Positions 12,685 to 58,460 of a DNA stretch of 64,000 nt are shown here, one piece after another. Numbering within the stretch: position 1 is the first letter of the stretch; every line of letters starts with the position of its first letter. Where the stretch lies: the NCBI GenBank assembly GCA_021792095.1, contig JAJYVH010000001.1, forward strand, positions 445,324-509,323, given 5' to 3'. The DNA is from Candidatus Micrarchaeota archaeon (GTDB lineage Archaea > Micrarchaeota > Micrarchaeia > Micrarchaeales > CABMGC01). The notes beneath the pieces are model-generated. The model saw only the letters and a list, made by a program, of their open reading frames with translations, was not told the origin of the DNA and did not search any database. The position numbers and the translations under genes were made by a program.

Positions 12685-14640
12685 TTGCTGTGCTGCATTC
12701 TCTTTCACACACCTGATTGTATGCGGCAAAGCGGCCTGCGCATTGGTTATTTTGAGTTTGCTGTAATCGCCATAGTGCTCGTCCTGTCCGTGTATGTTGC
12801 CGAGTTCCAAACCTTCTTTTCTAACGCCGTTTCGGCGCTGCTCCTGGCTGTTTTTGCATTCTTCTCTGTCTTTGTGTTCGTTCACGTGGTCTACTTCAGG
12901 GGAGCTGGCGCAAAGGCAGCCGCGCGCGCAAGGCTGGCGCAGCACCTGCTGCTGCTTTCATCGCTTGCATCCTTTCTGCTCATGTTTGTGTTTGCGGGTA
13001 CGCATTTTTGGGGCACGGTCAACACCACGCTTTCGTTTGCTACTGTAATCGGGAGTCTCTTTGTGCTCTTCCTGCCCCTGTTCATGTTTGTCTTCCTGGG
13101 CGCCAGCATCCTGAGGACAGGGAAAGGCAGCGCTGGCGATGCATCTGTCCTCTTCCTTGTGGCGTTCCTGATACTCGTCCTTTACTTCTCTTCCGGCTTG
13201 CTGCTTAAGTACTACACTGTGAACGACGAGGAGTTCCTCCAGCTCCATGCCGTGACCCTGACGCTCGAGGGCGGCAACCCGTATGCTGTTTCTTTTTCAA
13301 ACCTCCTTTTCACCAACGCAAGCACCATTGGCGTCTCGCTTACCAGCAATAACACGATAGTGGGGCGGATGGATTATCCTGCCCTCTATTTCCTCTCCTT
13401 CGTACCCTTCTACCTGATATCCAGCCCGACCCTGTACGACATGGGCCACGTGGACACCACCGTGGAGTCGACAGTGTTCCTGTTCATACTGCTGGCTGCG
13501 CTTGCATTTTCACTGAAGAGGGAAGAGCTGCTCAAGCCGAGACTGGTGCTCCTCGTGTTTGTGCTGCTCGCCGTGTTCATTACTGTGTCAATCACTACGT
13601 ATCTGATGCTCGCGCTTCTCGTGCTTGCCTACACGAGGATTGGCAACAAGTACGTGTGGGTGCTGCTCGGCCTGTGCGCCTCCATACAGGAGGAGCTCTG
13701 GATGCCCGTGATCCTGTTGCTCATCTATTCTTTGAACAACTACGGCATTAGGAAGGGGCTCTACGACATTGCTGGCACGCTTGCAGTGTTCCTGATGATA
13801 AATGCATACTTCATAGCTGCGGGCCCCGCTGCCTATTTCGGCGCTGTCCTCACCCCACTCAACGGTTTCTACCTGCCGAGCGGCATAGGGGCGGTGGGCT
13901 CGGCGCTGATGAGCTACTACCCCGTACTGATGCAGACCTACACGCAGCTATTCGACATAGCGACTGTAGCGCTCTTGCTTCTCTTCGCATACGTGAACAG
14001 GAAGGAGCTCGTGGGCCTTTTCAGTCTCATACCGCTTGTTTTCATGGTGCACGTCCTGCCTTCATATTATGTGATGTTCATTTTCCTCATCTTCTTCTCC
14101 TTATTCGCGGAGGGTGCCGCAGGCAAGCGGAAAGGCACGCTCAGCGGCGCGCTTAAAAGGCACAGACTGGCCTTTGCGCTCGCGATGCTGGTCATAGTGC
14201 TTGCTGCAGCATACGCCGTGTATGCGTCCAATGCATCTTACTCTTCCAACTTCGACGTGCGCCTGGTCAACCAGACGCTTGTTGTGAATCAGACTAGTGA
14301 AACTTCTTACTACTCGGCTACGCTTCTCTGCCATAACATTGCAAACACAACAGTGTATGCGTATGCCTTGGTCTATTACGGCAAGGGCACGTATCTGCTC
14401 GGATTCATCAACAAGAGCATAGTGACAAGCCCCACCGAAGCGCCTTCGTGCGGTTCGTACGAATGCAAGGTTAACGTGAACAAGATAGCACTGCATGGCG
14501 ACAGCGGCAGCTACAACCTGACCGCGACGCTGCCGTGGGCCAACGGGACCATGCCCGCAGATGGCGTCGTGATGGGCGTATACAACAACGAGTACGTGTA
14601 CCTCGGCCCGCCGGTGTACGGTCGCGCAGGCACAGGATAG
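12685..14640 (+). CDS. large polytopic membrane protein with C-terminal extracellular domain (GT-C-like glycosyltransferase candidate)
   Basis: 651 aa with more than 10 hydrophobic segments, then a soluble tail rich in N-x-S/T sequons. The likely start is ATG 12721. No specific catalytic motif was recognised. Confidence 0.4.
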   Translation: MLCCILFHTPDCMRQSGLRIGYFEFAVIAIVLVLSVYVAEFQTFFSNAVSALLLAVFAFFSVFVFVHVVYFRGAGAKAAARARLAQHLLLLSSLASFLLMFVFAGTHFWGTVNTTLSFATVIGSLFVLFLPLFMFVFLGASILRTGKGSAGDASVLFLVAFLILVLYFSSGLLLKYYTVNDEEFLQLHAVTLTLEGGNPYAVSFSNLLFTNASTIGVSLTSNNTIVGRMDYPALYFLSFVPFYLISSPTLYDMGHVDTTVESTVFLFILLAALAFSLKREELLKPRLVLLVFVLLAVFITVSITTYLMLALLVLAYTRIGNKYVWVLLGLCASIQEELWMPVILLLIYSLNNYGIRKGLYDIAGTLAVFLMINAYFIAAGPAAYFGAVLTPLNGFYLPSGIGAVGSALMSYYPVLMQTYTQLFDIATVALLLLFAYVNRKELVGLFSLIPLVFMVHVLPSYYVMFIFLIFFSLFAEGAAGKRKGTLSGALKRHRLAFALAMLVIVLAAAYAVYASNASYSSNFDVRLVNQTLVVNQTSETSYYSATLLCHNIANTTVYAYALVYYGKGTYLLGFINKSIVTSPTEAPSCGSYECKVNVNKIALHGDSGSYNLTATLPWANGTMPADGVVMGVYNNEYVYLGPPVYGRAGTG

Positions 14641-14677: not shown

Positions 14678-16255
14678 TCATCTGCCTGTTTTCTTGTATA
14701 TGTAGATGCCGCCTCCCTTGGCATACAGCGAGTAGTCGTGGCTGACGTAGCCGCTTACGTTGAACTGCGCGCCAGTCAGATCGCCGTAGTCCGAGCAGTC
14801 TTTGCAGAAAACAACGAACTCGGGGGTGGTGTTGAGCCAGTAGAAGGAGTAGAGCGTCTTGTTGAGTGGCAGGTACCACGAGTATCCCTCGTCAGGGGGC
14901 AGTTCCAAATAGTACATCCTGTAAAGGCGCAGGGCTGTGTCTGCGCCAGCCAGTACGGTGGCGTTTTGGGGCAGGACGGAAAGCACATCCGAAGCGTTCT
15001 GCCAGCTCGTATAGTTTGCGACAGCCTGGTGCTCAAGAGAGGCATATGTGTAGATCGCAGGCGAAAAGTAGAGCACAAACCCGACGAACATGGCAGTTAT
15101 AACCAGTACGAGCGGTATGGATGCCTTTGCAAGGAAGCCCATGGCTCCGCGCGCTATGCCGCTTCCGGATCCGCGGCGCTTGTTGTTTAGCAGGAGCTCG
15201 AGCCCCATTATGGCCGCTACCACGGATCCCTCCGTAGCGTAAGTGAGGTTTTGGGTGTCCTGGAAGAGGAAGTTGGTGTTGTGCACTACAAACACTTCAG
15301 CCAGCCATGGCGATATGAGTATCAGCAGCGGTATGATTGCGATGAGCGGGTAGGGGCCGAACCACAGCAGCACAACGACGAGCAGCAGGATAGCGAACTG
15401 CACATACGTCGTGCCGAAGCTGCTGGTGGCGTTGGGTATGCTCCCTGCCTGCTGCTGCAGCTCGCCGAATATGTGGAGTATGCTCGGCGTATTTATGTAC
15501 GAGCCCGACGCGTACGCAGCCAGCAGCGACTGCGACGCATATAGGTAAAACACAAGGAATGCAACGGTGATTGCGAAGGCGGCGGGGAGCATTTTCGCAG
15601 TGTTACGGGCCCATATCCTGCTGTCCCGCCCCGGTCTTTTCGAGTACAGCAGCCCGTATGCCGCTATGCCTATAAGCAGCGTCAGGCCCACTATGGCGTC
15701 AACATCGAAGACGCTGAGGAAAACGAAGTACGATAGCAGGAAATATCTGCTGCCCCTTATGAACAGGTAGAAGGAAAGCACGTAGAGGAACAGCATCGCC
15801 GCTTCCAGGTGGAACGCAAAGTAAGTGAGCCCTATTATGCCCGGGTTCAGAAGGAACGCGAACACGAGCGCTGCTGAGACCGATTCCTTGCCAGTGACAA
15901 ACTTTGCGGCAAAGAAGACGAGCACAGCGGTGGCCGCTATGAACAGGTCCTGGACCACCACCAAGGTAAGCGGAGAGTTGAAAGCGAAGAAGATAGGAAT
16001 CAGGAGCAGGTGGAACGGCGATATGTGCGTCATGAAGCTTAGGTACTCGAGCCCTGACACAGCGCCTGCGTGGTATATGTCTATGTTCAGCGCGCTTGCA
16101 GCGGTCCCAAGGTCTATGTACGACGTGCCGAATGTGCTGTACTGGTACACTGCGAAAGAAATCCAGAAAGCAAGATACGCCAATATGGATGCGGCAAGAA
16201 GCACGCGGTACCTGTTCAGACCCTGCTGCTCTTTCACCCTAACCCCTCGATGCAA
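14678..16255 (-). CDS. DUF2079-like polytopic membrane protein (GT-C-like candidate)
   Basis: 525 aa. The N-terminal pattern STFGTSYIDLGTAASALNI...THISPFHLLLIPIF resembles the DUF2079 opening (FDLG...HFSP). It has many TM segments and a C-terminal soluble domain. Confidence 0.45.
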   Translation of the reverse strand: MHRGVRVKEQQGLNRYRVLLAASILAYLAFWISFAVYQYSTFGTSYIDLGTAASALNIDIYHAGAVSGLEYLSFMTHISPFHLLLIPIFFAFNSPLTLVVVQDLFIAATAVLVFFAAKFVTGKESVSAALVFAFLLNPGIIGLTYFAFHLEAAMLFLYVLSFYLFIRGSRYFLLSYFVFLSVFDVDAIVGLTLLIGIAAYGLLYSKRPGRDSRIWARNTAKMLPAAFAITVAFLVFYLYASQSLLAAYASGSYINTPSILHIFGELQQQAGSIPNATSSFGTTYVQFAILLLVVVLLWFGPYPLIAIIPLLILISPWLAEVFVVHNTNFLFQDTQNLTYATEGSVVAAIMGLELLLNNKRRGSGSGIARGAMGFLAKASIPLVLVITAMFVGFVLYFSPAIYTYASLEHQAVANYTSWQNASDVLSVLPQNATVLAGADTALRLYRMYYLELPPDEGYSWYLPLNKTLYSFYWLNTTPEFVVFCKDCSDYGDLTGAQFNVSGYVSHDYSLYAKGGGIYIYKKTGR

Positions 16256-17087: not shown

Positions 17088-18341
17088 ATGGAACTTAGGC
17101 AAGCTGTGTTGTCTGCACTTTCGCTGCTCTTTCTGGTAGCCGTTTCCACCGCGGCGGGCCCTACAGGCCCAGCTTCGCAGCTGATAACCGGCTGCGACAC
17201 ACTTACCCCATCGGCCGCGCTCGCCATACCCGGCGACATGATAAGCGTCGCGTTGCTGGCGCTGCTCGTGTCTTTCGACGTAGTGGCCCTTGGCTACATA
17301 CTGTCCAAAGTCTTCGCCAGCCAGCGCATCGCGGGCTGGGTCAACGGCGAGTTCTGGGAGATGGCGAAGACGGCGATACTGATAGTGGGCATCTTCTCCG
17401 CGCTTGCGATCCTGGGCAACATAGCGCTGCTGATTGCGCCTTCGTCGCTAAACCTGCAGCAGTCCCAGTCTGGCAGCTACTCGTCCAGCCTCGTGGCTCT
17501 TGCCGTAGGGGCGTGCAGCTACCTCGGCACCGCTTCTGTCACCACGACCGAAAGCCCCTCGAGCGCGAGGTTCGGGTACCCTACCATAACAACGTCAACC
17601 TCGGTGTCCAACGCCTACGTCTACGATTCGTTCTCCTACCTTATATCGTTCAGCAACGGACTGGGCGCCCTGAAGAATTCGAGCATCGGGCTGTGGATAC
17701 CCATACCGCCCCCGCCATTCTCTGCAGAGTCGCCCGTTGTGTTCACTTTCGGCTTCCACCTCAACCCCTACGAGAACAGGATGCTGGAGACCAACTTCAA
17801 GCTGGTGGGCCAGTATGCGTCCATGATAAACGACATGATGAACTACATAGCCGTGCCCACGCTCATGGCCATGGCCGTGCAGTACTACCTGCTGCCTCTA
17901 GTTTTCGTGCTGGGCCTGCTCGTCACTATACCGATAGGGCTCATACTGCGCGCGTTTCCCTTCGTGCGCGGCATAGGCGGCATGCTCGTGGCCCTGGGCA
18001 TAGGCATGTCGCTCATATACCCGGCGCTGCTCGTGCTGCTCAACTATCCTGTGACGCAGGCGCTGCAGTCGAGCTCCCTGCCCACCCTCTCCGGCTCTGC
18101 GTGCACCGGCATATTCTGCAGCTTCCTCGGGGGCATCACCGGTTCTGCTAACGTGCTTTCCAGCATAGACACTGTCTTCCCTGCGCTCAACGGACTGCTG
18201 AGCTTCAGCACCTACCTGCTGCTGCAGTTCATGCTCTTCATACTCGACCTTGCGATAGCGTTCCCGCTCGTGGACAACATAGCCAGGATGCTGGGAGGCT
18301 CCATAAGGCTCCAGCTCGGAGGCAAGCTGAAGATGAGGTGA
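17088..18341 (+). CDS. polytopic membrane protein, paralog family member (signal peptide; candidate VirB6/CedA-like)
   Basis: 417 aa with signal peptide MELRQAVLSALSLLFLVAVSTAAG. The N-block is SKVFASQRIAGWVNGEFWE and the core motif is RAFPFVRGIGGMLVALGIGMSLIYPALL. The tail is ARMLGGSIRLQLGGKLKMR. Confidence 0.7.
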   Translation: MELRQAVLSALSLLFLVAVSTAAGPTGPASQLITGCDTLTPSAALAIPGDMISVALLALLVSFDVVALGYILSKVFASQRIAGWVNGEFWEMAKTAILIVGIFSALAILGNIALLIAPSSLNLQQSQSGSYSSSLVALAVGACSYLGTASVTTTESPSSARFGYPTITTSTSVSNAYVYDSFSYLISFSNGLGALKNSSIGLWIPIPPPPFSAESPVVFTFGFHLNPYENRMLETNFKLVGQYASMINDMMNYIAVPTLMAMAVQYYLLPLVFVLGLLVTIPIGLILRAFPFVRGIGGMLVALGIGMSLIYPALLVLLNYPVTQALQSSSLPTLSGSACTGIFCSFLGGITGSANVLSSIDTVFPALNGLLSFSTYLLLQFMLFILDLAIAFPLVDNIARMLGGSIRLQLGGKLKMR

Positions 18342-18429
18342 TGCGACGCTAGACCCGGTACTGCTGCAGGCTGCCGCGCCGGCATGCGGCTTTGCGAGCA
18401 TAGACCAGTACGGCTGGATAAGCATCAAT

Positions 18430-19563
18430 GTGCTCGTCGTGCTGGCGAGCGTGATGATCGCGGCCGTAGTTTTCGTGTTCGCCAACTTCCTGCCCCCAGA
18501 GCGTATGCAGAGGCTCAGGGGCATATCCAGGTACGAGATGGTGGAGGCTATCGTGAGCATAGTGATAATAGGCGCGCTGCTCGGCTTCTCCTCCTTCGCG
18601 TGCAACGCAGGCGCGTCGCTGGTAGGCTCCAGCGGGTACACGTCGCTGTTCGGCGCCGACACGACGTACGTGAGCAACCTCCTGTTCCTGAACGGGGTGG
18701 GCATAGTTGAGAACGTTTACACGTCGTCGATAAGGCTCGTTATAGCGGCGAACATATTCAGCTATGTGGCCCCGCTGCTCGCCGACAAGTACCTGACTGC
18801 AAGCGCTGCTCTGACCAGCGCGTCGGGCAAGCAGTACGTAAGCATAAGCATGACGGTGAACCCTGCTTTCAACGACTACTTCTACAAGCTCTCAGGAGTG
18901 CTGACGGGCGCGATGTCGTCCCTCGTAATAATAGCGTACTCCATCCTGTTCCTGCTCTTCCTGCTTTTGCCGGTCATAAGCGCTGGCGCGCTCACACTGC
19001 TGGCTCCGCTGTCGCTCATAGTGCGTTCGCTCTCGTTCGCCGGCAAGAAGCTGCGCGAGGTGTCCAACCAGCTCCTGGCGATAGCCATAGGCTTCTACTT
19101 CGTGCTCCCCCTGATGCTGGCCCTCAACGCGTATGTGGGAGCCTGCCTGAACATAGGGCTGGGAGGCACTGCAGTCTCGTGCAGCTACCTGCCAAGCATC
19201 ACGCACTATCTAACCGCGTATACGCTGCCCGTGGCGCCGGCGTCCCTGTTCACGTCGAGCAATCCGCTCGACCTGAGCTCCAACGCGATGGTCAGCAACT
19301 TCGTTGCAGGCTTCGGGGGCACGGGCATACTCGGTAGCTTCTACGGCCCCGCTTTCTCCAACGTGGGCACGTTCTTCAGCACCATACTGTACTATCCCGG
19401 CGTGGCGCAGGGGTATGCGTTCCAGATATCCGGCTACGTGTTCCTTGGAGTAGTGATGATAGCCCTTGATTTCGCTGTGACGCTTGGTTTTGTAGTAGGG
19501 ATAGCCAAGGGGCTCAATGCGATGAGCGGCAACGAGCTCTTCGGGGCCGAGCCCATATTGTGA
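18430..19563 (+). CDS. polytopic membrane protein, paralog family member (divergent core motif; start uncertain)
   Basis: 377 aa from GTG 18430, with N-block PPERMQRLRGISRYEMVE and core RSLSFAGKKLREVSNQLLAIAIGFYFVLPL. The in-frame upstream sequence (18343-18429) encodes ATLDPVLLQAAAPACGFASIDQYGWISIN. This resembles the N-terminus of the 22522 paralog (GVLLQASVYNY..) but contains no in-frame ATG/GTG/TTG. Confidence 0.65.
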   Translation: MLVVLASVMIAAVVFVFANFLPPERMQRLRGISRYEMVEAIVSIVIIGALLGFSSFACNAGASLVGSSGYTSLFGADTTYVSNLLFLNGVGIVENVYTSSIRLVIAANIFSYVAPLLADKYLTASAALTSASGKQYVSISMTVNPAFNDYFYKLSGVLTGAMSSLVIIAYSILFLLFLLLPVISAGALTLLAPLSLIVRSLSFAGKKLREVSNQLLAIAIGFYFVLPLMLALNAYVGACLNIGLGGTAVSCSYLPSITHYLTAYTLPVAPASLFTSSNPLDLSSNAMVSNFVAGFGGTGILGSFYGPAFSNVGTFFSTILYYPGVAQGYAFQISGYVFLGVVMIALDFAVTLGFVVGIAKGLNAMSGNELFGAEPIL

Positions 19564-21416
19564 TCTCCATGAAGCCTATCGCGCTCGCAATCGCCGTCGT
19601 GCTCCTCTCCGGCATAGCGGGCACCGCCGGCGCGGCCTCAGGCGCCACTTTCATGACGCCGTATTCGGGCTTCGAGTCGTGGCTGCCCATAGTGTTCCTG
19701 GGCATACTGATAAGCTTCATGATAGTCGCGCTGCACTACATGCTCGGGGCTGTGCTGCAGAACAACAGGGTGAAGGCAAGCGCCGTTGGCGAGCTGGGCC
19801 AGGTGATAGGGGCGGTGGTGATAGCTGTCATAGTGATTGGCATACTGTACTTCGTGGGCACAAGCGAGTTCTCATTCGTCTCATTCGTGTCCCCTGGCAG
19901 CGTCTACTCGCTCTGCGGGCAGATCGGCAATTCCAAGTTGGATTTCCTCTCCGGCGCCCCATCGAACACGATATGCGGCTACATCGATTCGCTGGATGCG
20001 GGCAGCACAGACATAACGGAAAGGCTGGACTACGGCCTGTTCGCGAGCTACGCCATACTCGCCAACCTAACAAACCAGGACGCGAACAACCTCAACTCCA
20101 TATATATCTTCGAGGGCTGGATAGGTTTCCTCTACAAATTCACATCCGTTTTCGGGATCTGCTCCCCCGGGGAAACATGCTTCCCTCCATTCGTGCCCAG
20201 GACGATAAGCCTTACTGTATCGTACCAGCCGCTTGCCGGCTATCAGGCCCTGGAGAGCGTGGCCAGGCCGCTGGAGGCCGAGGCCAACCTGACCTTCTAC
20301 CTGCTGTTCATGCAGATGGTCGTGATACTCATACTGCTCTTCGCGTGGCCCTACCTGCTGGCCGCCGGAATGGTGCTGAAGTCTACGTTCTTCGCTCGGC
20401 GGCTAGGCGGCCTGCTCATGGCCATGGCGCTCGCTGCCGTGCTAATCTTTCCACTCATGTACCTGCTGGAGTACTCGGCGTTCTCGAACCTCAACCTCGG
20501 CCCGATAGGCGCGACGAACCTGCCCAATGTGCCGGTGTACGAGCAGCTCCCCGGGACCAGCGGCAACGTCATCATATACGGGTCGACCTCCACAGGCGGC
20601 TACGTGCCGTCGTACCTGGCGCCTTCTTCCAGCTGCCCCAGCGTCAGCGGGGGCATAAAGAATCCGCAGGAGCTGGGGCCAAGCTACGTCTATGAGTCGG
20701 AGTGCGGCAACGCAAACACAGCGAGCAAGGGCTGCACGTACAGCAGCATCTCGGGGGCTGCCTCGGTCTCGCCGCTCTGCCCGCAGGTCGTGTTCCAGGC
20801 TTCGCCGTCCTCGGCCCCACAGTCCTGCACGGTAGGCGAGGCGGGCTGCACATTCAGCGGATACGTGCCCTATACGCAGTCCCCAGGCGCAGGCTGTGCG
20901 CCAGGCGACTATGTATACGAGACATCGTGCGGCACCCCCACGATCCAGGGCTCTACGGTGCCAAGCGGCGTTGCGCTGTGTTCGGCTACACCGCCGACCG
21001 ACGAGCTCTGCGTATCGCCGCTGAGCTCGAACATCAACTTCTTCGTGCTGCCGAACCTGGACCAGGCGCTTACCTACTACTCGTGCGAGCCCACGCCCCT
21101 GATGGGATACGAGGCCGCCTTCGCGGTCTACTACCTGATCCCCGGATTCGGGATAGTAACTGGGCTGCTGAGCGGCGCGTTCGGCTTCGTGGGCCAGCTG
21201 CCCGTGACTCCGCTCAGTTTCGGCGGCGCCGGAGCGTGCAATCCGAGCAACGCCATACACTCTGTGCTCATGCTCACCAACGTATACGGCATAGTGTTCG
21301 TGGGCGGGGTGCTGCTGCCCCTGCTCAACATACTTATAGCCCTGTCAGCTGTTTCTGGGTTCGCTGTGCTCTTCGGAGGTGACACGGACATACTTGGCCT
21401 CTCTAGGTTGATATGA
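19560..21416 (+). CDS. polytopic membrane protein, paralog family member with large Cys-rich extracellular insert
   Basis: 618 aa. GTG 19560 overlaps the upstream stop (GTGA); the alternative ATG 19569 gives MKPIALAIAVVLLSGIAGTAGA. The N-block is LQNNRVKASAVGELGQ and the core is KSTFFARRLGGLLMAMALAAVLIFPL. The insert carries repeated YVYE(S/T)xCG and many Cys. The tail is FGGDTDILGLSRLI. Confidence 0.7.
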   Translation: MISMKPIALAIAVVLLSGIAGTAGAASGATFMTPYSGFESWLPIVFLGILISFMIVALHYMLGAVLQNNRVKASAVGELGQVIGAVVIAVIVIGILYFVGTSEFSFVSFVSPGSVYSLCGQIGNSKLDFLSGAPSNTICGYIDSLDAGSTDITERLDYGLFASYAILANLTNQDANNLNSIYIFEGWIGFLYKFTSVFGICSPGETCFPPFVPRTISLTVSYQPLAGYQALESVARPLEAEANLTFYLLFMQMVVILILLFAWPYLLAAGMVLKSTFFARRLGGLLMAMALAAVLIFPLMYLLEYSAFSNLNLGPIGATNLPNVPVYEQLPGTSGNVIIYGSTSTGGYVPSYLAPSSSCPSVSGGIKNPQELGPSYVYESECGNANTASKGCTYSSISGAASVSPLCPQVVFQASPSSAPQSCTVGEAGCTFSGYVPYTQSPGAGCAPGDYVYETSCGTPTIQGSTVPSGVALCSATPPTDELCVSPLSSNINFFVLPNLDQALTYYSCEPTPLMGYEAAFAVYYLIPGFGIVTGLLSGAFGFVGQLPVTPLSFGGAGACNPSNAIHSVLMLTNVYGIVFVGGVLLPLLNILIALSAVSGFAVLFGGDTDILGLSRLI

Positions 21417-22525
21417 TGCGCGCCGCTATCGTGTTGTTGCTCCTTGCCTTCCTGCTTACCTCCGGCATGGCGAGCGCGGGGCCTTCGGTGGAGGGCAACA
21501 TCTGCTCCTCACTCTTTAGCAGTTCCAGCCCCATGCCGCTGCACGGTGCAGCCGGCTACTTGGGCACAGTGGCCGGCATAGCCCTCCTGGTGGTGCTTGT
21601 GGTATTGATTGTGCTCGGCGTAGCCTACGCGGTAGGCTACGCCTTCGGAATAAACTCACTCCTCAATTTCGTAAAGACCGAATCGGTGGAGAGCTTTTTC
21701 AACATACTGCTGATTGCGCTTGTCGCGTTCGGCATAGGCTTCGCCGGGCCCGCCATGCAGTTCCTTGCCGGAATAGGCGGCATAGGCCTTGAGTCGGCAG
21801 GCGCCGCAGCGCCAAACATAGCCAGCGCCCAGGGACTCTACACGAGCCTTTGCACTCACTACGTTACCCACGGGATAGGGACGGTCATTGATAACGAGAT
21901 AACGCTGAGCATAACCTACATATTCACCGAAGTGCTGCAATCTACTACTGTGCTGCTCATGCCGAACGGCTTCGGGTTCTCGTGGTCGCCATTCGCAGGC
22001 GCGACGATACAGCTCAACGTAATAAACACGCAGATGCAGGTGTACACCTTCTTCGCCGCTATCTTCGTGGCTATAGCTATACTGCTGGCGCTGATATACT
22101 TCCTCTTCCCTATTTTCCTGTACGCTGGCGTGCTCCTCAGGGCGTTCCCGTGGACCAGGGCTGCTGGAGGCTCGCTCATAGCGCTCTTCATCGCTTTCTA
22201 CATAGTGTTCCCCGCGCTTCTCTACCCGTTCTCCACCTACCTCACCGTTGCAGTTAACGCCGCCTCCGGCTCGATACCGCCGCTGAGCTCCCTGTCGAGC
22301 CTCTCGCTGCCTGTCTCGGTGCTCGCGTCCTCGATCGACGGGGCCGCCGTCGCTGACGAGGTGATGGGCGTGGGCGGGTTCGCGCAGAACCTGGCTTACA
22401 TGACGCTGCAGATAATAGGCATATTCATCGCATTCCTGGTATCCTTCGACCTGCTCGAGGGATTGGGAGACCTCCTCGGCTCGCCGTCGCTCAGCGCTGG
22501 CAAGCTATTCAGCAAGGTGATATGA
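21413..22525 (+). CDS. polytopic membrane protein, paralog family member
   Basis: 370 aa with an ATGA overlap on the upstream gene and signal peptide MMRAAIVLLLLAFLLTSGMASA. The core is RAFPWTRAAGGSLIALFIAFYIVFPALL and the tail is LGDLLGSPSLSAGKLFSKVI. Confidence 0.7.
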   Translation: MMRAAIVLLLLAFLLTSGMASAGPSVEGNICSSLFSSSSPMPLHGAAGYLGTVAGIALLVVLVVLIVLGVAYAVGYAFGINSLLNFVKTESVESFFNILLIALVAFGIGFAGPAMQFLAGIGGIGLESAGAAAPNIASAQGLYTSLCTHYVTHGIGTVIDNEITLSITYIFTEVLQSTTVLLMPNGFGFSWSPFAGATIQLNVINTQMQVYTFFAAIFVAIAILLALIYFLFPIFLYAGVLLRAFPWTRAAGGSLIALFIAFYIVFPALLYPFSTYLTVAVNAASGSIPPLSSLSSLSLPVSVLASSIDGAAVADEVMGVGGFAQNLAYMTLQIIGIFIAFLVSFDLLEGLGDLLGSPSLSAGKLFSKVI

Positions 22526-23577
22526 TGATGGGCGTACTACTCCAGGCAAGCGTATACAACTACATAATGTCGCCCTACCTGGTGTGGCTCCCGGTGGCGT
22601 CGGCAGCGGCGATCGCCATAATAGGCATACTTGCCGTTGCCTATATGCTGACCTCCTTCATGGGCGACAGGCGCATGGCCACGTGGGTGCGCGTAAAGAT
22701 ATACGAGGTGGTCTTCAGCTTCATACTCATAGGCGCCTTCGCCTTCGTTGTAGTGCTGCTAACCTCGGTCAACTTTGTCCAGCTCTTCGGACCTGTCTAC
22801 GGGCCGGGGCAGGACGGGCTCGTGCCTATGGCGTGCTCCGCCCAGGGCAGCCCGCCAATACCGTCCAACGACCTCTTCACGCTGGCCGTATGCGATATGC
22901 ATCTGTTCGTGCAGCAGGTGACCAATATAGGCGCAGCCGTGTACTGGATCGGCGCCCAGTTCGCCTTCGTGCCCAGCGTGAGCGTAGTGGTCACTCCGGT
23001 GCCCGGAGTGAGCAGCCTTGGCGTGTCTACGAGCTTCACGCTCATACCCCGCGCCGACGAGGTCTTCCTGGCCTATGTCATAGACCTCATATACATCACG
23101 CTCACGGTGGCTCAGCTGCAGGTGCTGCTGCTCGCTGCATCGCTGTTCATATTCTCGCTCTTCATGGCGATAGGCCTTATAGCAAGGCTTTTCGTCATAA
23201 CCAGGAGTTTCGGCGGGGCGCTCATAGCGTTCGCGGTGGGGCTGGGCATAGTATACCCGCTGCTCGTGGCCATAACCTATGGGTATGTTAACGTGGGCAT
23301 GCAGAACACGGCTGGCGTTCTTATCTGGCTCGAGGGATCCGGGGCGCTTGGCGGTATACTTGGGCTCCTTGTGCTGGTCGGCGTGCCGACGTTGGTGGGG
23401 AGCGCTTTCGCAGGCGTCACCGGCGCAATGCTCCTGACCTATCTAGGACTTGCGATAATGGGCCTTGTGTTCGTGCCCATACTAACGTTTGTATTGGTTG
23501 ACGTGTTCATAATAGACTTCTCAAGCGCAGTGGGCGAGAAGATGGACTTCCTGTCCCTGCTCACCAATGTTATATGA
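22522..23577 (+). CDS. polytopic membrane protein, paralog family member
   Basis: 351 aa with an ATGA overlap. The N-block is FMGDRRMATWVRVKIYE, the core is RLFVITRSFGGALIAFAVGLGIVYPLL and the tail is AVGEKMDFLSLLTNVI. Confidence 0.7.
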   Translation: MMMGVLLQASVYNYIMSPYLVWLPVASAAAIAIIGILAVAYMLTSFMGDRRMATWVRVKIYEVVFSFILIGAFAFVVVLLTSVNFVQLFGPVYGPGQDGLVPMACSAQGSPPIPSNDLFTLAVCDMHLFVQQVTNIGAAVYWIGAQFAFVPSVSVVVTPVPGVSSLGVSTSFTLIPRADEVFLAYVIDLIYITLTVAQLQVLLLAASLFIFSLFMAIGLIARLFVITRSFGGALIAFAVGLGIVYPLLVAITYGYVNVGMQNTAGVLIWLEGSGALGGILGLLVLVGVPTLVGSAFAGVTGAMLLTYLGLAIMGLVFVPILTFVLVDVFIIDFSSAVGEKMDFLSLLTNVI

Positions 23578-24743
23578 GTGTGTTGCGTATGCGAGTAGGC
23601 ATTGTGTTCTTGGCTGTCGTGCTTGTCGCGTTAGCAGCGCAGGCTGTCGGCGCTTCGTTCACTTCCCCATCTTCTGGCGTCGGCCCTATCTCAGGAACGC
23701 AGTACAGCACTTCATACTGCCTGCAGGGCGGCGTTGCGTCTATTGCGGCCCCGTGGTACTGCAGCCAGATCAACCAGGCGGTGGCCAGCATATGGCAGCA
23801 GTGGGAGCCCATAGCAGTCATAACCATAATGGTGGCCTTCATGATAGCCGCTGTGATATTCGCAATAGGCATAGCCATAAGGAACCAGAGGGTTAAGGAC
23901 TTCGGCATGGGCGAGATCTACGAGGCCGTGGCTACCGCTTTCATAGCAGTGTTCTTCCTGACGCTCGCCGCAATACTCTTTGGCGTGATACCGGCATACA
24001 CGGCGGGCAGCATAGACCCGTACAACACATCGCTTAGCTACATAAGCAGCACAATAAACTCCTCAGGTGGCCTGCTGTCCAGCATACTGAACGTGGTCAT
24101 AATAGACTACTTCTACAGCAGCATAAGCATAGAAGTCAACGTGTCGAACGTGCCGCAGACGGTCGCAGGCCTGCCGGCCCGGGCCATAGCCAGCACAGCC
24201 GATACGCTCTCGCCCTACGCGCCATTCATACTCGCATTCTTCATAGAGCCGGCCAAGGTTGTAGGAGACTTGCTTATCGATGCGCTGGTAGCGCTCGAGG
24301 CCGAGTTCTACATGATACTCTTCTTCATGTACATAGCGATACCTGTGTTCCTCATACCCGGCATAATATTCCGCGCCATATTCCCATTGAGGAGCGTGGG
24401 TGGCATGCTCATAGGCGCTGCCTTCGCGTTCTACGTAGTGATGCCGCTGCTGTTTTCGGTCGCGTACTACTTCACGAACACGAGCCAGCTGGAGATGCTC
24501 AACTCTGCTTCGGCAGCAGTTTCGGTCAACGGGGCCGGCACCCTGGCGCAGACGAATGCGGCATCGCCCATGGCGCCCCTGGTCACGGAGATGACCGGCT
24601 TGGAGAGCAGCATGGGGGGCTTCTTCCTCTCTATACTCTTCTATCCCGCGCTGATACTCGCCATAACATACACGGCGATGACGACAGTGGCCGATTTCAT
24701 AGGCGGTGCGGCGAAGAGGACAGGCAGGATGGCGCTCGTATGA
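23574..24743 (+). CDS. polytopic membrane protein, paralog family member
   Basis: 389 aa with an ATGA overlap and signal peptide MSVLRMRVGIVFLAVVLVALAAQAVGA. The N-block is IRNQRVKDFGMGEIYE, the core is RAIFPLRSVGGMLIGAAFAFYVVMPLL and the tail is FIGGAAKRTGRMALV. Confidence 0.7.
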   Translation: MSVLRMRVGIVFLAVVLVALAAQAVGASFTSPSSGVGPISGTQYSTSYCLQGGVASIAAPWYCSQINQAVASIWQQWEPIAVITIMVAFMIAAVIFAIGIAIRNQRVKDFGMGEIYEAVATAFIAVFFLTLAAILFGVIPAYTAGSIDPYNTSLSYISSTINSSGGLLSSILNVVIIDYFYSSISIEVNVSNVPQTVAGLPARAIASTADTLSPYAPFILAFFIEPAKVVGDLLIDALVALEAEFYMILFFMYIAIPVFLIPGIIFRAIFPLRSVGGMLIGAAFAFYVVMPLLFSVAYYFTNTSQLEMLNSASAAVSVNGAGTLAQTNAASPMAPLVTEMTGLESSMGGFFLSILFYPALILAITYTAMTTVADFIGGAAKRTGRMALV

Positions 24744-24809: not shown

Positions 24810-25640
24810 TTGGCGATCTCGCAGAAATTCCTGTTCACGCTGCTGCTGCTCGGCACGTTCCTGCTAGTCTTCGTTACGTACGCCCTGCCTATCGGCATAA
24901 TAGCAAAGTTCGTCGTCGCGGTGGCGGCCCTTTTCCTTGACATACTGGCATTCTCCACGAAGCTCTACATGAGCTTCTTCATGCCGTTCCTCCACATGAA
25001 GAATGGGACGCTCACCATAGACGACAGCGAGGCGTTCACTATAGCGCCCTCGAGCAACGCCATAGTGACCAGGCGCGGGGGCGACGTGTATGCCAGCGCC
25101 TTCGTGCACATACCCACGTACCGCTCATCGAGCGAGATGAACCAGGAGGAGAAGGTGGACTTCGCCAGGCTGTTCAGCCGCGCGCTCACGATCTCCAAGA
25201 CGCCTGTGCGCTTCAGCGCGCAGCTCTGCGTGATAGACAAGGACGTTTACATAAACAACATAAAGGACAGGATGAACGAGGCCGAGGAGAGATACCAGGC
25301 GACCTCGCTGAACAAGAACGCGAAGCGCGAAGAGGTGGAGAGGATCAACGGCGAGGCGACGATGTGGCACAACCTCTTCGACAACGTGAACAGGGTTAGG
25401 TCGCTGGCTCTAGACGTCTTCGCGATGGTCACGGCGCAGGGCAACACGGAAGAGGAGGCGAGCACGCTCGCGCTGCAGCAGGCCGACGAGATTGCGTCTG
25501 GCGTGAGCTCCGTGTTCGGGGTGCAGGCGAGCTTAGTCGAGGGAGAGGACATACTCAAGTATCTGGAGCCGGACCACATGATACCTATAAGCACTGTGAG
25601 TGAGGAGATGCGCGCCCGCGCCGCATCCGAGGGGACGTAG
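24810..25640 (+). CDS. TM-anchored protein, candidate VirB3/VirB4 N-terminal-domain-like (copy A)
   Basis: 276 aa with a TTG start 15 nt downstream of GGAGG. It has two N-terminal TM helices, then NGTLTIDDSEAFTIAPSSNAIVTRRGGDVYASAFVHIPTYRSSSEMNQEEKVDFARLFSRAL..PVRFSAQLCVIDKD. This logic resembles the N-terminal (CagE_TrbE_VirB-type) region of VirB4. Similarity was judged by eye only. Confidence 0.55.
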   Translation: MAISQKFLFTLLLLGTFLLVFVTYALPIGIIAKFVVAVAALFLDILAFSTKLYMSFFMPFLHMKNGTLTIDDSEAFTIAPSSNAIVTRRGGDVYASAFVHIPTYRSSSEMNQEEKVDFARLFSRALTISKTPVRFSAQLCVIDKDVYINNIKDRMNEAEERYQATSLNKNAKREEVERINGEATMWHNLFDNVNRVRSLALDVFAMVTAQGNTEEEASTLALQQADEIASGVSSVFGVQASLVEGEDILKYLEPDHMIPISTVSEEMRARAASEGT

Positions 25641-26465
25641 ATGGACGGGCTGACAATAGTATACCTGGGGCTGACATGCGGCCTGGCTTTCATGCTGCTG
25701 GTGAACGCAGCCGCGTTCGGGCCGCTGGGGCTTGTTGTGGCCCTGCTTTCGCTTCTAGCAATAATGCTCATACTGGTGCTCAACTACGCCGACTTCATAC
25801 TGTTCCCTGCGATAACTAGGCTGCTGAGTATAAAGATGGTCCCCGCAAAGGGCTACTACATGCCGAAGGGCAGCGACGCGGTGATAAAGTATGTCAGCGG
25901 CCTCTACTACGCCACGGGCTACCTGACCGCTAACATATACAACTATGTCTTCGCTGCGGAGAGCGTGGATGAGGAGGAGGAGCAGAAGCTGGGCTCCGCG
26001 CCCGACAAGTGGGAGCGGATAGTGATGAACGCTGGCTTCCCCTTCAGGTTCAGCGTCATATCAATGCCCAAGGACCTGCAGAAGTACAGGGACGAGCTCG
26101 AGGGGTCGAGGGGCACGCTGGAGTACAGGCTGTCCAAGGAGCAGGAAGGCAGCCAGCCCAGCCAGCTCGTGATAGACGACCTCAACAGGAAGATAAGCGT
26201 CATAAACGCCAGGATAGACCGCATAGCGGCCGGGGAGAGGCCCGTGGACGCCACTATGTACATAGAGAGCACGGCCGTGGGGGTGAGCGAGAAGGAGGCG
26301 ATGGATGCGCTCAGCAACCAGCTCGCGCACCTGCAGACGCTCTTCAGCTCATTCGACCTCAGCATCGGCAGGGTCATGGGCAGGGAGGTGTACCACCTCT
26401 TCTCGTTCGGCTACGCGCTGCCGGAGTACAGCGCGCTGGAGCAGACGTTCAGCACACAGAAATAG
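25641..26465 (+). CDS. TM-anchored protein, candidate VirB3/VirB4 N-terminal-domain-like (copy B)
   Basis: 274 aa that starts directly after the upstream stop. It has two TM helices, then KGYYMPKGSDAVIKYVSGLYYATGYLTANIY...GFPFRFSVISMPKD. It is a paralog of 24810-25640 and 1093-1818. Confidence 0.55.
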   Translation: MDGLTIVYLGLTCGLAFMLLVNAAAFGPLGLVVALLSLLAIMLILVLNYADFILFPAITRLLSIKMVPAKGYYMPKGSDAVIKYVSGLYYATGYLTANIYNYVFAAESVDEEEEQKLGSAPDKWERIVMNAGFPFRFSVISMPKDLQKYRDELEGSRGTLEYRLSKEQEGSQPSQLVIDDLNRKISVINARIDRIAAGERPVDATMYIESTAVGVSEKEAMDALSNQLAHLQTLFSSFDLSIGRVMGREVYHLFSFGYALPEYSALEQTFSTQK

Positions 26466-26523: not shown

Positions 26524-28029
26524 ATGAGCATGGTACGCGTGCAGAGCATAATGAGCAACGAGCTCGCGAAGAGGAGCATCTTCTCGAGGCCGCCCGAGCC
26601 GCCGCACGAGTACCTGCTCAACGACCCCTCGACGTCAATATTCATAGGCATAACGAAGCTGTTCAGCGTGCCCTTCACGTGGACTTTCGCCAACCTCACC
26701 AACCCGCACATAGCTGTGGTGGGAATAACTGGCGCAGGGAAGAGCTACTTCGTCAAGACCTTCCTTACCAGGGCCAGCTACGTCTGGAACACGAACGCCA
26801 TAATAGTCGACTGGGCCGGCGAGTACAAGGCGTGGGTAAAGCAGAGCGGCGGCACTGTGGTCTCGCTGGGGAAGGGCGACTTCATCAACATAATGGACCT
26901 CTCTGGCATGAAGCCAGTGGACAGGGCCAAGCAGATAATGAACTCGCTCGAGATACTAACAGACATAGCGGAATTTCCAGAGCAGAAGAGGCTCACAGCG
27001 GAGGCGCTGGAGCAGGCGTACGTGAACTTCGGGTTCGCGTCGTCGCAGCTCCCCGAGCCGGGCAAGGAGGTGCCGACGCTCAAGGAGGTGATAGCGCTGC
27101 TGGAGGAGAAGCTGCAGGAGGGCAGCTACGAGTACCCGGCGGAGCTGGAGAACGCTGTGTACAGGCTCAGGCAGTTCGCAAGGGAGGGCGAGGACTACTT
27201 CGCGAGGAAGAGCACCATAGACCTGGGCAGGCTGGCGAGCTCGGGCCTCGTGTCCATAGACCTGTCCAACCTTCCCGACGAGAAGTTCAGGGCCATGGCC
27301 GCGCTGTTCATACTCCAGACGCTGAAGGAGAAGATGCGCACCGAGGGCTGGAGCGCCTCCAAGGGGCTGAAGGCGCTGGTCGTGCTGGACGAGGCGTGGA
27401 AGGTGGCGAGCGACGAGAGGAGCGACGCTGTCATGATAGTCCGCGAGGGCAGGAAGTACCAGTTCGGCCTCATAGTAGCCTCGCAGAACCCCACGGACAT
27501 AAACGAGGCTATATTCTCGAACGTGGGCACTACTATAATGCTGCGCGTCAAGTTCGAGAAGTTCCTGGACTATTTGCAGGGTTCGCTGAACTTCTCGGGC
27601 TTCATGAGGGGCGAGATAAGCAAGTTCGGAGTGGGCCAGGCGGCGATAGACATGTCGTTCCAGACATCGGTGCAGTTCCCCGAGGTCTTCCTGATAAACA
27701 GGGTGGTCGGCGAGGTGCCGCTCGATGTCTACACTATAACGATGGCCGACATACTCAACGAGCAGGAGCTCTCCAACCCCGACGTGCAGAAGGAGCTGAG
27801 CATGGAGAAGATAGACATAAACTCCAGGCTGATACAGGCCAACTTCAACAGCGACACAATAAACGACATATTCAAGGAGCTGGACGCGAGGAACAGGATG
27901 ATAGACATAAGGGGGCTAGTGCAGATACTCTCGGGCGAGAAGGTGAGCAAGGAGGCGATAGTGGAGCTGCTGAGGAGCTTCGGGCTGCAGGACAGCATCA
28001 TAACCAGGGTGTTCGTATACGTGACGTAA
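26524..28029 (+). CDS. VirB4/TrbE-like secretion ATPase (FtsK-HerA superfamily) lacking the usual N-terminal domain
   Basis: 501 aa with Walker A HIAVVGITGAGKSYF, DWAGEY, Walker B ALVVLDEAWKV, and REGRKYQFGLIVASQNPTD. A DEAW Walker B (rather than the EEAH of HerA) favours the VirB4 type. The C-terminal about 90 aa are helical repeats. Confidence 0.8.
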   Translation: MSMVRVQSIMSNELAKRSIFSRPPEPPHEYLLNDPSTSIFIGITKLFSVPFTWTFANLTNPHIAVVGITGAGKSYFVKTFLTRASYVWNTNAIIVDWAGEYKAWVKQSGGTVVSLGKGDFINIMDLSGMKPVDRAKQIMNSLEILTDIAEFPEQKRLTAEALEQAYVNFGFASSQLPEPGKEVPTLKEVIALLEEKLQEGSYEYPAELENAVYRLRQFAREGEDYFARKSTIDLGRLASSGLVSIDLSNLPDEKFRAMAALFILQTLKEKMRTEGWSASKGLKALVVLDEAWKVASDERSDAVMIVREGRKYQFGLIVASQNPTDINEAIFSNVGTTIMLRVKFEKFLDYLQGSLNFSGFMRGEISKFGVGQAAIDMSFQTSVQFPEVFLINRVVGEVPLDVYTITMADILNEQELSNPDVQKELSMEKIDINSRLIQANFNSDTINDIFKELDARNRMIDIRGLVQILSGEKVSKEAIVELLRSFGLQDSIITRVFVYVT

Positions 28030-28048: not shown

Positions 28049-28345
28049 ATGGGAGTGACTTTCACAGTAGGCAGGATGGAGCTGAAGCGCGTGCTCACGG
28101 CTCTCGGCGTCAGCGAGAGGAGCATAGACGACATGCTGGCAGAGATGAACAGGCAGCACAGGCACGTCAACGTGGTTGCGTTCGCGGGCATGCTGCAGAA
28201 GGTGGGGCTGGACCCCGACGAGGCCGCGAACGTGCTCAGGCGCATAGGCGTTGACGACGTTTCGATAGCGAGCGCCTTCGACACTCTCGACGAGGAGCGC
28301 ATAAAGGGTGCGTACGGCAAGGTGGTGGACCTAGTGGTGGAGTGA
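28049..28345 (+). CDS. small helical protein related to the ATPase C-terminal repeat module
   Basis: 98 aa with repeated L..(L/I)G(V/L)....I units: RVLTALGVSERSIDDML, MLQKVGLDPDEAANVL, RRIGVDDVSIASAF. The tail of the 501-aa ATPase (LLRSFGLQDSIITRVF) and the ATPase at 1-1092 (MRELAVDEGDIAAAF) carry the same units. Confidence 0.5.
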   Translation: MGVTFTVGRMELKRVLTALGVSERSIDDMLAEMNRQHRHVNVVAFAGMLQKVGLDPDEAANVLRRIGVDDVSIASAFDTLDEERIKGAYGKVVDLVVE

Positions 28346-28346
28346 A

Positions 28347-28706
28347 GTGCAGAGGAAGAGTTACTGCATAATCTGCGGTGCCGAGAAGAAGGGGCTGGAG
28401 GTACAGGACGATTGGGAACTGGGCGCGATACGCTGGTTCAAGAGGAACGTCACCAAGAACGAGAAGGGGAACAGGCTCGTCGTCTGCAGGGAGTGCTATC
28501 CCAAGTACGAGGCAAGCAGGGGCAAGTTCGAGTCCAGGCAGAAGCTCTACATCGCGCTCGGGGCCATCTTCGCTGTGCTGAGCCTCGTGCTGTCCCCGAG
28601 CCTGACTTCCGTGCTGCTCGCCGTGTCCATCATGCTGATAATGCTTGCGCTCTCGCTGCTGAGCTACACGCCGAAGATAAGCATAAAAACTAGGCACGAG
28701 AAGTGA
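28347..28706 (+). CDS. zinc-ribbon protein with two C-terminal TM helices
   Basis: 119 aa with a GTG start 1 nt after the upstream stop. CIICGAEKKG...VCRECYP gives CxxC...CxxC, followed by LYIALGAIFAVLSLVL and VLLAVSIMLIMLALSLL. Confidence 0.6.
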   Translation: MQRKSYCIICGAEKKGLEVQDDWELGAIRWFKRNVTKNEKGNRLVVCRECYPKYEASRGKFESRQKLYIALGAIFAVLSLVLSPSLTSVLLAVSIMLIMLALSLLSYTPKISIKTRHEK

Positions 28707-28731
28707 TATCGCTCACAGCGGGTGTTGATGC

Positions 28732-29457: not shown

Positions 29458-29461
29458 TACG

Positions 29462-29617
29462 GTGCGATACGCGGTAACTGTAAACAGGAAGTACAAGTAC
29501 GTGAAGGTGTACAGGGTCGTGAAGAGGGTGAGCGGCGGCACGAACAAGCTCTCGGAGTTTACCGCAAGGTTCATAGACAGGCTGGTGCAGGGAAAGAAGG
29601 CCAAAGGGCAGGCGTAG
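29462..29617 (+). CDS. small basic protein (51 aa), below ORF-track cutoff
   Basis: My translation from GTG 29462 is MRYAVTVNRKYKYVKVYRVVKRVSGGTNKLSEFTARFIDRLVQGKKAKGQA*. It fills the gap between neighbouring genes almost exactly (4 nt and 7 nt spacers), which argues for a real gene. Confidence 0.4.
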   Translation: MRYAVTVNRKYKYVKVYRVVKRVSGGTNKLSEFTARFIDRLVQGKKAKGQA

Positions 29618-29624
29618 TGGTGCT

Positions 29625-58367: not shown

Positions 58368-58460
58368 TCATAACCATCATAAAATCGATTTTACGTTATC
58401 TATGTATAACATTAAATATATAAATACGCGCATCCGAAGTTACGGTGCGTCCCAGCGCCC

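Follow-up and report, generated by a model that had tools for sequence, protein, structure and literature searches.

The window analysed here—64,000 nucleotides of contig JAJYVH010000001.1 (assembly GCA_021792095.1, positions 445,324 to 509,323 of the forward strand) from a Candidatus Micrarchaeota archaeon—encodes seven polytopic membrane proteins that belong to one family. Six of the genes, p1 to p6, form a tandem array, and the seventh, m333, stands on the other strand close to the start of the window. We discuss these proteins as candidate VirB6-like components of machinery related to type IV secretion systems (T4SS). With lengths in amino acids (aa) and transmembrane segments abbreviated as TM, the family members and their signature lie as follows:

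17088..18341, + strand: p1, 417 aa, VirB6-like family member with a signal-peptide-like start and 5 TM; orthologs in 44 loci
18430..19563, + strand: p2, 377 aa, without a signal peptide; core motif without GG; N-terminal hairpin the most pilin-like
19560..21416, + strand: p3, 618 aa, with a large outside loop 2 of ~263 aa
21413..22525, + strand: p4, 370 aa, family member
22522..23577, + strand: p5, 351 aa, the modelled member; five TM helices; helical bundle and beta-hairpin outside; R222...R228-x-x-G231-G232 turn in the cytoplasm
23173..23259, + strand: family signature in p5 (residues 218-246), comprising the end of TM3, the cytoplasmic turn and TM4; G-x3-R-x5-R-x2-G-G-x13-P
23574..24743, + strand: p6, 389 aa; conservation highest of all classes (orthologs 39-54% identical)
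1827..2828, - strand: m333, 333 aa, lone family member of a second, minimal module; orthologs at 31-45% identity

The coordinates and lengths of these seven open reading frames (ORFs), as given in an earlier first-pass annotation of the same DNA, are correct, and all motif strings quoted there are found in the translations. The array is tightly packed: at the junctions p2/p3, p3/p4, p4/p5 and p5/p6 start and stop overlap by 4 nt, reading ATGA or GTGA.

All-versus-all BLASTP of p1 to p6 and m333 yields short and weak matches that are centred on a core motif. Identity among the paralogs amounts to ~20-30% over most alignments and rises to 40-56% only in short core-motif stretches. For a leave-one-out test with profile hidden Markov models (HMMs), the database consisted of the left-out protein, 2,100 block-shuffled decoys—which keep the local composition—and reversed sequences. 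Real paralogs score 28.7-73.1 bits in this test and the best decoy 3.7 bits, so that the shared motifs pointed out in the first pass stand clear of composition-matched sequences. The seven proteins are true paralogs, and this includes the divergent 377-aa p2.

Three conserved blocks had been proposed for the family: TM1 with a basic loop and an acidic helix start, a core R-x-F-x3-R-x2-G-G...P, and a C-terminal tail (C-tail) containing Gly. All three are real, and they are the three cytoplasm-facing elements of the protein. Across 101-150 family members, the conserved columns are E59, G218, R222, R228, G231, G232, P246 and G338 (p5 numbering), which mark the places where TM2 and the C-tail begin and, between them, the cytoplasmic TM3-turn-TM4 hairpin. 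Four of them (G218, R228, G231 and P246) do not vary in an alignment of 101 sequences, and P246 alone does not vary in one of 150; E59, R222, G232 and G338 are conserved to at least 90%. The cytoplasmic TM3-loop-TM4 hairpin is the only block that is conserved family-wide. The 377-aa member diverges in this second block, as had been noted, and the divergence itself is kept across 47 orthologs.

The topology of the family—N-terminus outside, five TM, C-terminus inside—follows from the helices of an AlphaFold2 (AF2) model and from the distribution of Lys and Arg (K+R). Calculated for p5 from an alignment of 48 family sequences, the model reaches a predicted local distance difference test score (pLDDT) of 76 and a predicted template-modelling score (pTM) of 0.72; with only the seven paralogs as alignment, the pLDDT is 42 and the model unusable. 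The better model displays five long membrane helices, a helical bundle with a small beta-hairpin outside between TM2 and TM3, a tight TM3-TM4 turn and a short C-terminal helix. In 33 sequences, K+R per 100 aa amounts to 18.9 in the TM1-TM2 loop, 24.6 in the TM3-TM4 turn and 11.0 in the C-tail, all inside, versus 2.3 in the N-terminal segment, 1.7 in outside loop 1 and 0.5 in outside loop 2. Consistent with this topology, signal-peptide-like starts can be read from the translations of four members (p1, p3, p4 and p6), the number given in the first pass, and every Cys falls in a predicted outside segment; p3 bears 16 of them, all outside and the majority in loop 2. The description of the ectodomains as hypervariable holds in part. 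Between paralogs, the outside loops show no relationship, and the stretches with the lowest column conservation among orthologs (3-30%) fall there, whereas ortholog conservation is high in some outside segments—82% in the N-terminal segment of p6.

The family is large: a search of 1.84 billion representatives with a profile recovered 2,930 members—each a representative cluster—at E<=1e-3, and 2,160 at E<=1e-10. Named hits appear as 'hypothetical protein' from Micrarchaeota or 'uncultured archaeon'. For the seven window proteins, neither Pfam nor NCBIfam gave a match at E<=1, the PDB sequence profile search was also empty, and PADLOC returned nothing for the family and generic HerA matches for the neighbouring ATPase only. 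Among 101 further members, Pfam found neither PF04610 nor any recurrent match—a single TraG_N match at E 0.0017 aside—and showed that PKD, SprB, Ig or InlB-B domains have been gained in outside loops elsewhere in the family. Scanning one genome per species with p6 orthologs as query, which biases the sample to loci with p6, gave 50 loci, almost all labelled Micrarchaeota or Micrarchaeia. Three loci with a typical Micrarchaeota cluster carry other labels (L013, L030 and L037; two filed under 'Candidatus Marsarchaeota', one under 'Candidatus Saccharimonadales bacterium'), probably owing to mis-binning or to mislabelled metagenome-assembled genomes.

The order p1 to p6 is kept in 56 of 56 related loci, all six classes being present in 46. 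Every complete locus holds six copies, with no variation in number. Orthologs share 32-54% identity in each paralog class, and each class retains the core motif in a form of its own; that of p2 lacks GG in 47 of 47 orthologs. Given these colinear loci, ortholog identities and class-specific motifs, the six-fold duplication is ancient, and each copy is individually maintained.

Strict orthology and fixed order support non-redundant subunits and contradict a set of interchangeable surface-exposed variants, one of two readings offered in the first pass. Bartonella Trw, with its amplified surface-exposed T4SS parts, would be a precedent for such antigenic or host-range variation, and outside loops that are wholly different between paralogs, with some stretches conserved to just 3-30% among orthologs, would fit it as well. 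However, orthology is one-to-one, the copy number does not vary, each copy is conserved across species, the order is identical in all 56 loci, each class carries its own conserved version of the cytoplasmic motif, and the array can be explained without repeats or recombination signatures. We regard the variant reading as highly improbable; antigenic-variation cassettes were rejected on the grounds of strict orthology. The other reading of the first pass, a heteromeric stack or ring of related subunits, gains from the one-to-one orthology, the fixed order, the 4-nt overlaps and the class-specific motifs as far as heteromeric subunits are concerned; a single ring would be a possible arrangement.

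In both modules of the window and in ~50 related loci, the family is encoded together with a VirB2-like pilin and a VirB4/HerA-type ATPase. The window contains this design, which has a coiled-coil protein as its fourth part, twice: the small module holds one copy of each part, the large one six channel-subunit paralogs and two coiled-coil proteins. Next to the family members, the four-part design comprises:

11481..12035, + strand: VirB2-like pilin candidate, 184 aa; signal peptide, a Ser/Thr-rich insert after it and a two-helix hairpin; Pfam T4SS_pilin E 0.031
12243..12632, + strand: VirB2-like pilin candidate, 129 aa; Pfam T4SS_pilin E 0.0024, TrbC E 0.086
24810..25640, + strand: c276, N-terminal TM segment(s) plus a soluble coiled-coil-like domain; conserved in 51 ORFs
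25641..26465, + strand: c274, paralog of c276; length nearly invariant (274 aa) across species
26524..28029, + strand: VirB4/HerA-superfamily ATPase, 501 aa; Walker A GITGAGKSY; Pfam DUF87 E 8e-16, AAA_10, TraG P-loop
2832..3191, - strand: VirB2-like pilin candidate, 119 aa, conserved neighbour of m333 orthologs; Pfam T4SS_pilin E 3.6e-4, TrbC E 6.6e-3
1093..1818, - strand: c241, third member of the c276/c274 family; hhalign to c276 probability 96%, E 1.6e-9, to c274 probability 95%, E 2.8e-8
1..1092, - strand: second VirB4/HerA-type ATPase, N-terminal 363 of 372 aa, running off the window start; Walker A GVTGSGKTY

All three pilin candidates (11481-12035, 12243-12632 and 2832-3191) combine a signal peptide with a two-helix hairpin and a basic connecting loop. 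T4SS_pilin is weakly matched by each of them and TrbC/VirB2, also weakly, by two (12243-12632 and 2832-3191). Among 23 pilin orthologs, 11 match T4SS_pilin and six TrbC/VirB2, with a best E of 9.7e-7. The pilin profile matched no solved pilin in the PDB. In pilin-like proteins of the window and of loci L001-L058, a near-invariant Cys (LCG) lies where helix 1 begins, and a second one is found at the C-terminus or beside it. The pair suggests either a disulfide or a joining of the ends that would recall cyclic TrbC/VirB2 pilins. This genome has two tandem pilin genes where most relatives have one.

For the 501-aa ATPase, the NCBIfam models CedD (68.5 bits, cut-off 600) and CedB (64 bits, cut-off 700) match over the ATPase domain only; VirB4-like NCBIfam models match as well, far below their cut-offs. 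In the PDB, residues 57-329 match VirB4 (4ag5) at E 1.2e-7. In L002/L011 (OY969902.1), L022, L024, L027, L036 and L050, c274 is not directly followed by the ATPase and the genes downstream of it. In such genomes the 10-kb flank lacks this block, or the block follows p6 immediately in inverted orientation and c276/c274 are located elsewhere; the six-gene array can thus stay complete where the cluster is split.

The proteins c276, c274 and c241 form a second paralog family, each with a TM anchor and a soluble domain of ~200 aa (hhalign probability 95-96%; c276 versus c274 95%, E 2e-8). They might be replacements for VirB3, VirB8 or the missing VirB4 N-terminal domain, which might parallel the way in which the N-terminal domains of CedB and CedD split that VirB4 domain. 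With R388 VirB3, VirB4, VirB5 and VirB8, the c276/c274 profiles gave no hhalign signal (E 0.025-0.7).

The second module runs on the minus strand from 3191 to 1 in the order pilin, m333, c241, ATPase, and represents a minimal copy of the large module. Its ATPase is a paralog of the 501-aa ATPase (BLASTP E 5e-15), and the full gene, with DUF87, is present in L059. Another Micrarchaeia genome also has the minimal module, with the genes for rpL10e and diphthamide synthase beside it. Beyond the minimal module, the source contig continues with conserved genes of 229, 183 and 62 aa; in the other Micrarchaeia genome, a 726-aa protein with a faint HerA_C match is encoded further downstream.

How specific the T4SS likeness is was probed by comparing four cluster profiles with six R388 T4SS proteins in hhalign. 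The only standouts of this 4x6 matrix are the pilin with TrwL/VirB2 (E 1.5e-3) and the ATPase with TrwK/VirB4 (E 1.4e-3). The polytopic family itself is linked to the pilins by its N-terminal hairpin: for p2 orthologs, this hairpin matches the pilin family with a probability of 85% and E 6.8e-6 over 64 columns, an A(N/H)FLPP stretch being common to both, and a 33-sequence family alignment matches the pilin hairpin at E 1.3e-4, versus E 0.04-0.8 for five control families. On the structural level, Foldseek compared the p5 model with 350,542 PDB chains. The best match, a weak one, is R388 TrwI/VirB6 (8rt9_F; E 0.19, probability 0.89, template-modelling scores 0.35/0.41), and three further TrwI chains are found among the top 18. 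In an independent viral library, the best match—likewise weak—is a TrbL protein (E 0.64). Weak though both are, it appears unlikely that so rare a family as VirB6/TrbL would top two structure libraries by chance.

Because of the VirB2-like pilins, the VirB4/HerA-type ATPase and the second, minimal module, we read the family as the VirB6-like component of a T4SS-derived machine. It is not assigned to PF04610; it is VirB6-like in role and probably in fold. Overall, we consider it fairly likely that the seven genes encode polytopic channel or platform subunits of two chromosomal T4SS-derived, Ced/Ted-like machines in this Micrarchaeota (DPANN) archaeon. The subunits would then be functional counterparts of VirB6/TrbL, CedA and TedA, and probably their evolutionary counterparts too. 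The platform of type IV pili and archaella (PilC/FlaJ) was also considered and rejected, as there is no T2SSF/T2SSE match and the ATPase is of the HerA/VirB4 type.

Several observations weigh against a T4SS-derived machine. Sequence profiles do not connect the family to VirB6: hhalign gave E 0.6 for TrwI alone, E 0.5 for a 120-sequence TrwI profile and E 0.08-1 for a diverse profile of the MPF_T type (MPF, mating-pair formation), built with eight plasmid VirB6 genes. PF04610 is matched neither by the seven window proteins nor by the 101 further members, and the invariant Trp of VirB6 is without a counterpart among the invariant and near-invariant columns of the family. The likeness to CedA and TedA is drawn from published descriptions. 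Profile matches between TM helices, such as that of the pilin with the N-terminal hairpin, are prone to composition artefacts, although the controls were clean here. Furthermore, the pilin copies of the window all stay below the Pfam gathering scores, and the 501-aa ATPase lies as close to HerA as to VirB4—it scores 78 bits on models of HerA defence systems—and has no recognisable VirB4 N-terminal domain. Finally, six subunits cannot simply be mapped onto the R388 VirB6 pentamer or onto conjugative pili, the known ones of which have a five-start architecture, and the platform, docking and pilus roles discussed below are deduced from genes and one usable model.

The cluster is chromosomal and vertically inherited. 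Upstream it is flanked by Rpb4, L21e, TBP and MoxR, and downstream, within the window, by topoisomerase VI B; these housekeeping neighbours are shared between the window and those related contigs of which the flanks were inspected, and the cluster is colinear in ~50 species-level genomes. Its GC content of 0.55-0.60 does not deviate from the 0.50-0.63 found across the window, and scans of the window proteins detected no integrase, relaxase or coupling protein in it. These points bear on a further explanation, namely that the genes are the remnant of an integrated conjugative element or plasmid with a classical archaeal conjugation apparatus. Relatives of the VirB4/HerA-type ATPase are indeed mostly found on plasmids—233 of 495 matching plasmids are typed as conjugative—and archaeal conjugative plasmids with VirB4 and VirB6-like genes have been described (PMC9905601, PMC6563490). 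Against the constant chromosomal site, the colinearity, the inconspicuous GC content and the missing mobility genes, we hold such a remnant to be very unlikely; a mobile-element origin was rejected on the basis of the conserved housekeeping neighbours.

In full, the conserved gene order of the large module reads [MoxR] - pilin - m651 - (DUF2079) - m249 - p1 to p6 - c276 - c274 - ATPase - p98 - z119 - c241b - S776. Beyond the four-part design, it thus contains the following genes:

10547..11467, + strand: MoxR-type AAA ATPase; Pfam AAA_3 E 1e-45; 5' of the pilin gene in many loci
12685..14640, + strand: m651, 651-aa polytopic membrane protein; same position in 28 related loci; no Pfam match
14678..16255, - strand: DUF2079 polytopic membrane protein, 525 aa; Pfam DUF2079 E 1.5e-12; variably present, seen in L001 and L006
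16295..17044, + strand: m249, 249-aa polytopic membrane protein, directly 5' of the array; conserved in 35 loci
28049..31955, + strand: p98, z119, c241b and S776; colinear in ~32-36 related loci; weak Pfam matches only

The MoxR-type ATPase is a conserved upstream neighbour and may be a member of the system. Two copies of the 651-aa type are present in L006. p98 has 98 aa; z119 has 119 aa, Cys pairs that look zinc-ribbon-like by eye, and a hydrophobic C-terminal segment. c241b (241 aa) combines a coiled coil with a weak winged helix-turn-helix/PCI-like C-terminus, and S776 (776 aa) resembles a surface glycoprotein: it has many N-x-S/T sequons, a TM late in the sequence and a tail in the cytoplasm. 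m651 and the DUF2079 protein may be glycosyltransferase-like enzymes that modify the pilin or surface proteins.

Such neighbours would also suit a lineage-specific envelope machine unrelated to T4SS that is driven by a HerA/FtsK-type ATPase and whose 'pilins' are ordinary two-TM subunits; it might, for example, insert S-layer or surface proteins, take up lipids or nutrients, or remodel membranes. Since each T4SS link is individually weak, this explanation keeps some probability, and we rate it as unlikely rather than negligible. The glycosyltransferase-like polytopic proteins (DUF2079, m651) and the large surface glycoprotein-like gene fit it, as do the location among housekeeping genes, the ATPase that is equally close to HerA models and a family without a sequence-level link to VirB6. 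What speaks for T4SS derivation instead is that independent weak signals agree. The best fold matches are VirB6 and TrbL in two libraries, the pilins recurrently match T4SS_pilin and TrbC and, among the R388 proteins, specifically VirB2, and the N-terminal hairpin is pilin-like, as in CedA/CedA1. Moreover, pilin, polytopic protein and ATPase form exactly the triad that is the conserved core of Ced and Ted (PMC9905601).

Under a T4SS derivation, each machine would consist of a VirB2-like pilin, the channel family, a membrane-anchored coiled-coil protein (c276/c274/c241) and a hexameric ATPase of the VirB4/HerA type. The six subunits of the large module would probably assemble into one hetero-oligomeric membrane platform. 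Its base would be formed by the pilin-like N-terminal hairpins together with the outside bundles, and the VirB2-like pilin would be drawn from the membrane and polymerised there. The cytoplasmic hairpins and C-tails would dock the ATPase, either directly or via c276/c274. On the outside, the divergent, Cys-containing and disulfide-capable loops—in some lineages with PKD, SprB or Ig inserts—would serve as an exposed stalk or contact surface. Possible cargo includes DNA, as in Ced and Ted, or proteins and other cargo exchanged with a host; host-directed transfer has been proposed for the T4SS of episymbiotic Patescibacteria (PMC12102498).

Instead of one shared platform, each of the six VirB6-like paralogs could form its own homo-oligomeric channel or adaptor, all of them sharing one ATPase and pilin but differing in specificity for substrates, hosts or stages. 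R388 VirB6 is a homo-pentamer (entries 8rt9 and 7o3v), the minimal module manages with a single family member, and separate specificities would agree with outside loops that have nothing in common between paralogs and in some lineages tolerate PKD, SprB or Ig inserts. Still, we find this arrangement rather improbable: all six genes occur in fixed order in every sufficiently long locus, and the start/stop overlaps suggest coupled, near-equal production. The loss of GG in 47 of 47 p2 orthologs is also easier to understand for a specialised position in a heteromer than for a self-sufficient channel.

The number six would fit the hexameric ATPase. More tentatively still—we deem it possible but doubtful—the six anciently diverged VirB6-like subunits might form a pseudo-symmetric hetero-oligomeric platform of a conjugation-pilus-like organelle, the first heteromeric T4SS channel, which would be kept beside core genes throughout the phylum and would be the long-sought device by which these genome-reduced episymbionts exchange macromolecules with hosts, not one for DNA-repair import as in Sulfolobales. 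By analogy, such a heteromeric platform could be compared with the paralog rings of MCM2-7 or CCT.

Among known systems, VirB6/TrbL (PF04610; R388 TrwI, Agrobacterium tumefaciens VirB6) is alike in being a polytopic inner-membrane part beside a VirB2-type pilin and a VirB4-type ATPase. VirB6 also shares five TM, an outside N-terminus, an inside C-terminus and a large outside loop after TM2 with the family described here, and its conservation is likewise limited to a TM-cytoplasmic hairpin. The VirB6 model with five transmembrane segments (5-TMS) reportedly goes back to Jakubowski et al. in 2004. It is also given in a figure legend of a study on Rickettsiales (PMC2653234). In contrast to VirB6 with its invariant Trp, the Micrarchaeota signature is R...R..GG...P; there is no profile similarity, the structural similarity is weak (template-modelling scores of ~0.35-0.44), and six distinct paralogs stand in place of one homo-pentamer.

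Chromosomal T4SS derivatives are also known from archaea, namely Ced of Sulfolobales and Ted of Thermoproteales; of the secretion apparatus they likewise retain a pilin, a polytopic membrane protein and a HerA/VirB4-type ATPase. This core—with CedA, TedA or VirB6 as the polytopic protein—is common to Ced, Ted and bacterial T4SS (PMC9905601; PMC11868833). As described by Beltran et al., CedA's N-terminal part resembles the pilin CedA1, and VirB6 resembles VirB2 in the same way, more weakly (PMC9905601); in the Micrarchaeota family the N-terminal region resembles the cognate pilin as well. Saccharolobus has CedA and a paralog, CedE, the latter with 5 TM (PMC11868833). The best NCBIfam models of the window ATPase are, below cut-offs, CedD and CedB; it lacks the TM and the N-terminal domain described for these two. 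Further differences are the phylum (DPANN/Micrarchaeota), the six plus one paralogs versus one or two, and the additional TM and coiled-coil family (c276/c274/c241) and accessory genes.

For the array itself, the closest precedent is found in Rickettsiales, which are obligately associated with hosts and have reduced genomes: their rvh T4SS has four or five VirB6 paralogs in tandem (RvhB6a-e). This array is vertically inherited and kept in all genomes (PMC2653234). Its proteins, 674-1,154 aa long, are genuine members of PF04610, encoded in a diderm bacterium with a near-complete VirB set, whereas the Micrarchaeota family is archaeal, measures 333-618 aa and is not assignable to PF04610. The two arrays represent convergence, not a duplication of shared descent.

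As for a role in host contact, the T4SS of Patescibacteria, or candidate phyla radiation (CPR), offer a functional analogy: they are chromosomal and relaxase-less and bear VirB2-like pilins. These systems are near-universal in this ultra-small episymbiotic lineage and essential for epibiotic growth in one cultivated strain (PMC12102498). Unlike the Micrarchaeota modules, they belong to the bacterial MPF_FATA type, with recognisable homologs of VirB4, VirB6 and PrgI, and no six-fold VirB6 array has been described for them.

Apart from the two modules, the window contains a region (51726-61838) with a GC content of 0.50-0.54, versus 0.55-0.63 elsewhere. Encoded there are an AAA_14/DUF4143 ATPase and three large proteins with Laminin_G_3/ConA-like lectin domains (886, 726 and 1125 aa), one of which also has a PQQ beta-propeller. 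The proteins may be candidates for symbiont surface adhesins, or the region a recently acquired island.

How DPANN archaea attach to their hosts and draw resources from them is an open question. Cryo-tomography of DPANN-host contacts has revealed intercellular tubes and docking structures with unidentified proteins (PMC11329633). Our literature search, in which subscription journals were incompletely covered, found no description of the present system in DPANN or Micrarchaeota. The system provides a concrete candidate for a phylum-wide machine: ~17-20 genes, chromosomally fixed, with recognisable pilin and ATPase parts. It includes a large membrane-protein family without Pfam or NCBIfam match and is probably a T4SS derivative of archaea. 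For annotation and for experiments in Micrarchaeota co-cultures, the signature of the family and the order of the genes can serve as markers.

If the T4SS derivation is true, chromosomal T4SS derivatives would range from Crenarchaeota, with Ced and Ted, to DPANN, and Micrarchaeota would parallel the episymbiotic Patescibacteria with their essential T4SS. The array would then represent a natural experiment in which a homo-oligomeric channel became a six-paralog heteromer, convergent with the proliferation of VirB6 in Rickettsiales.

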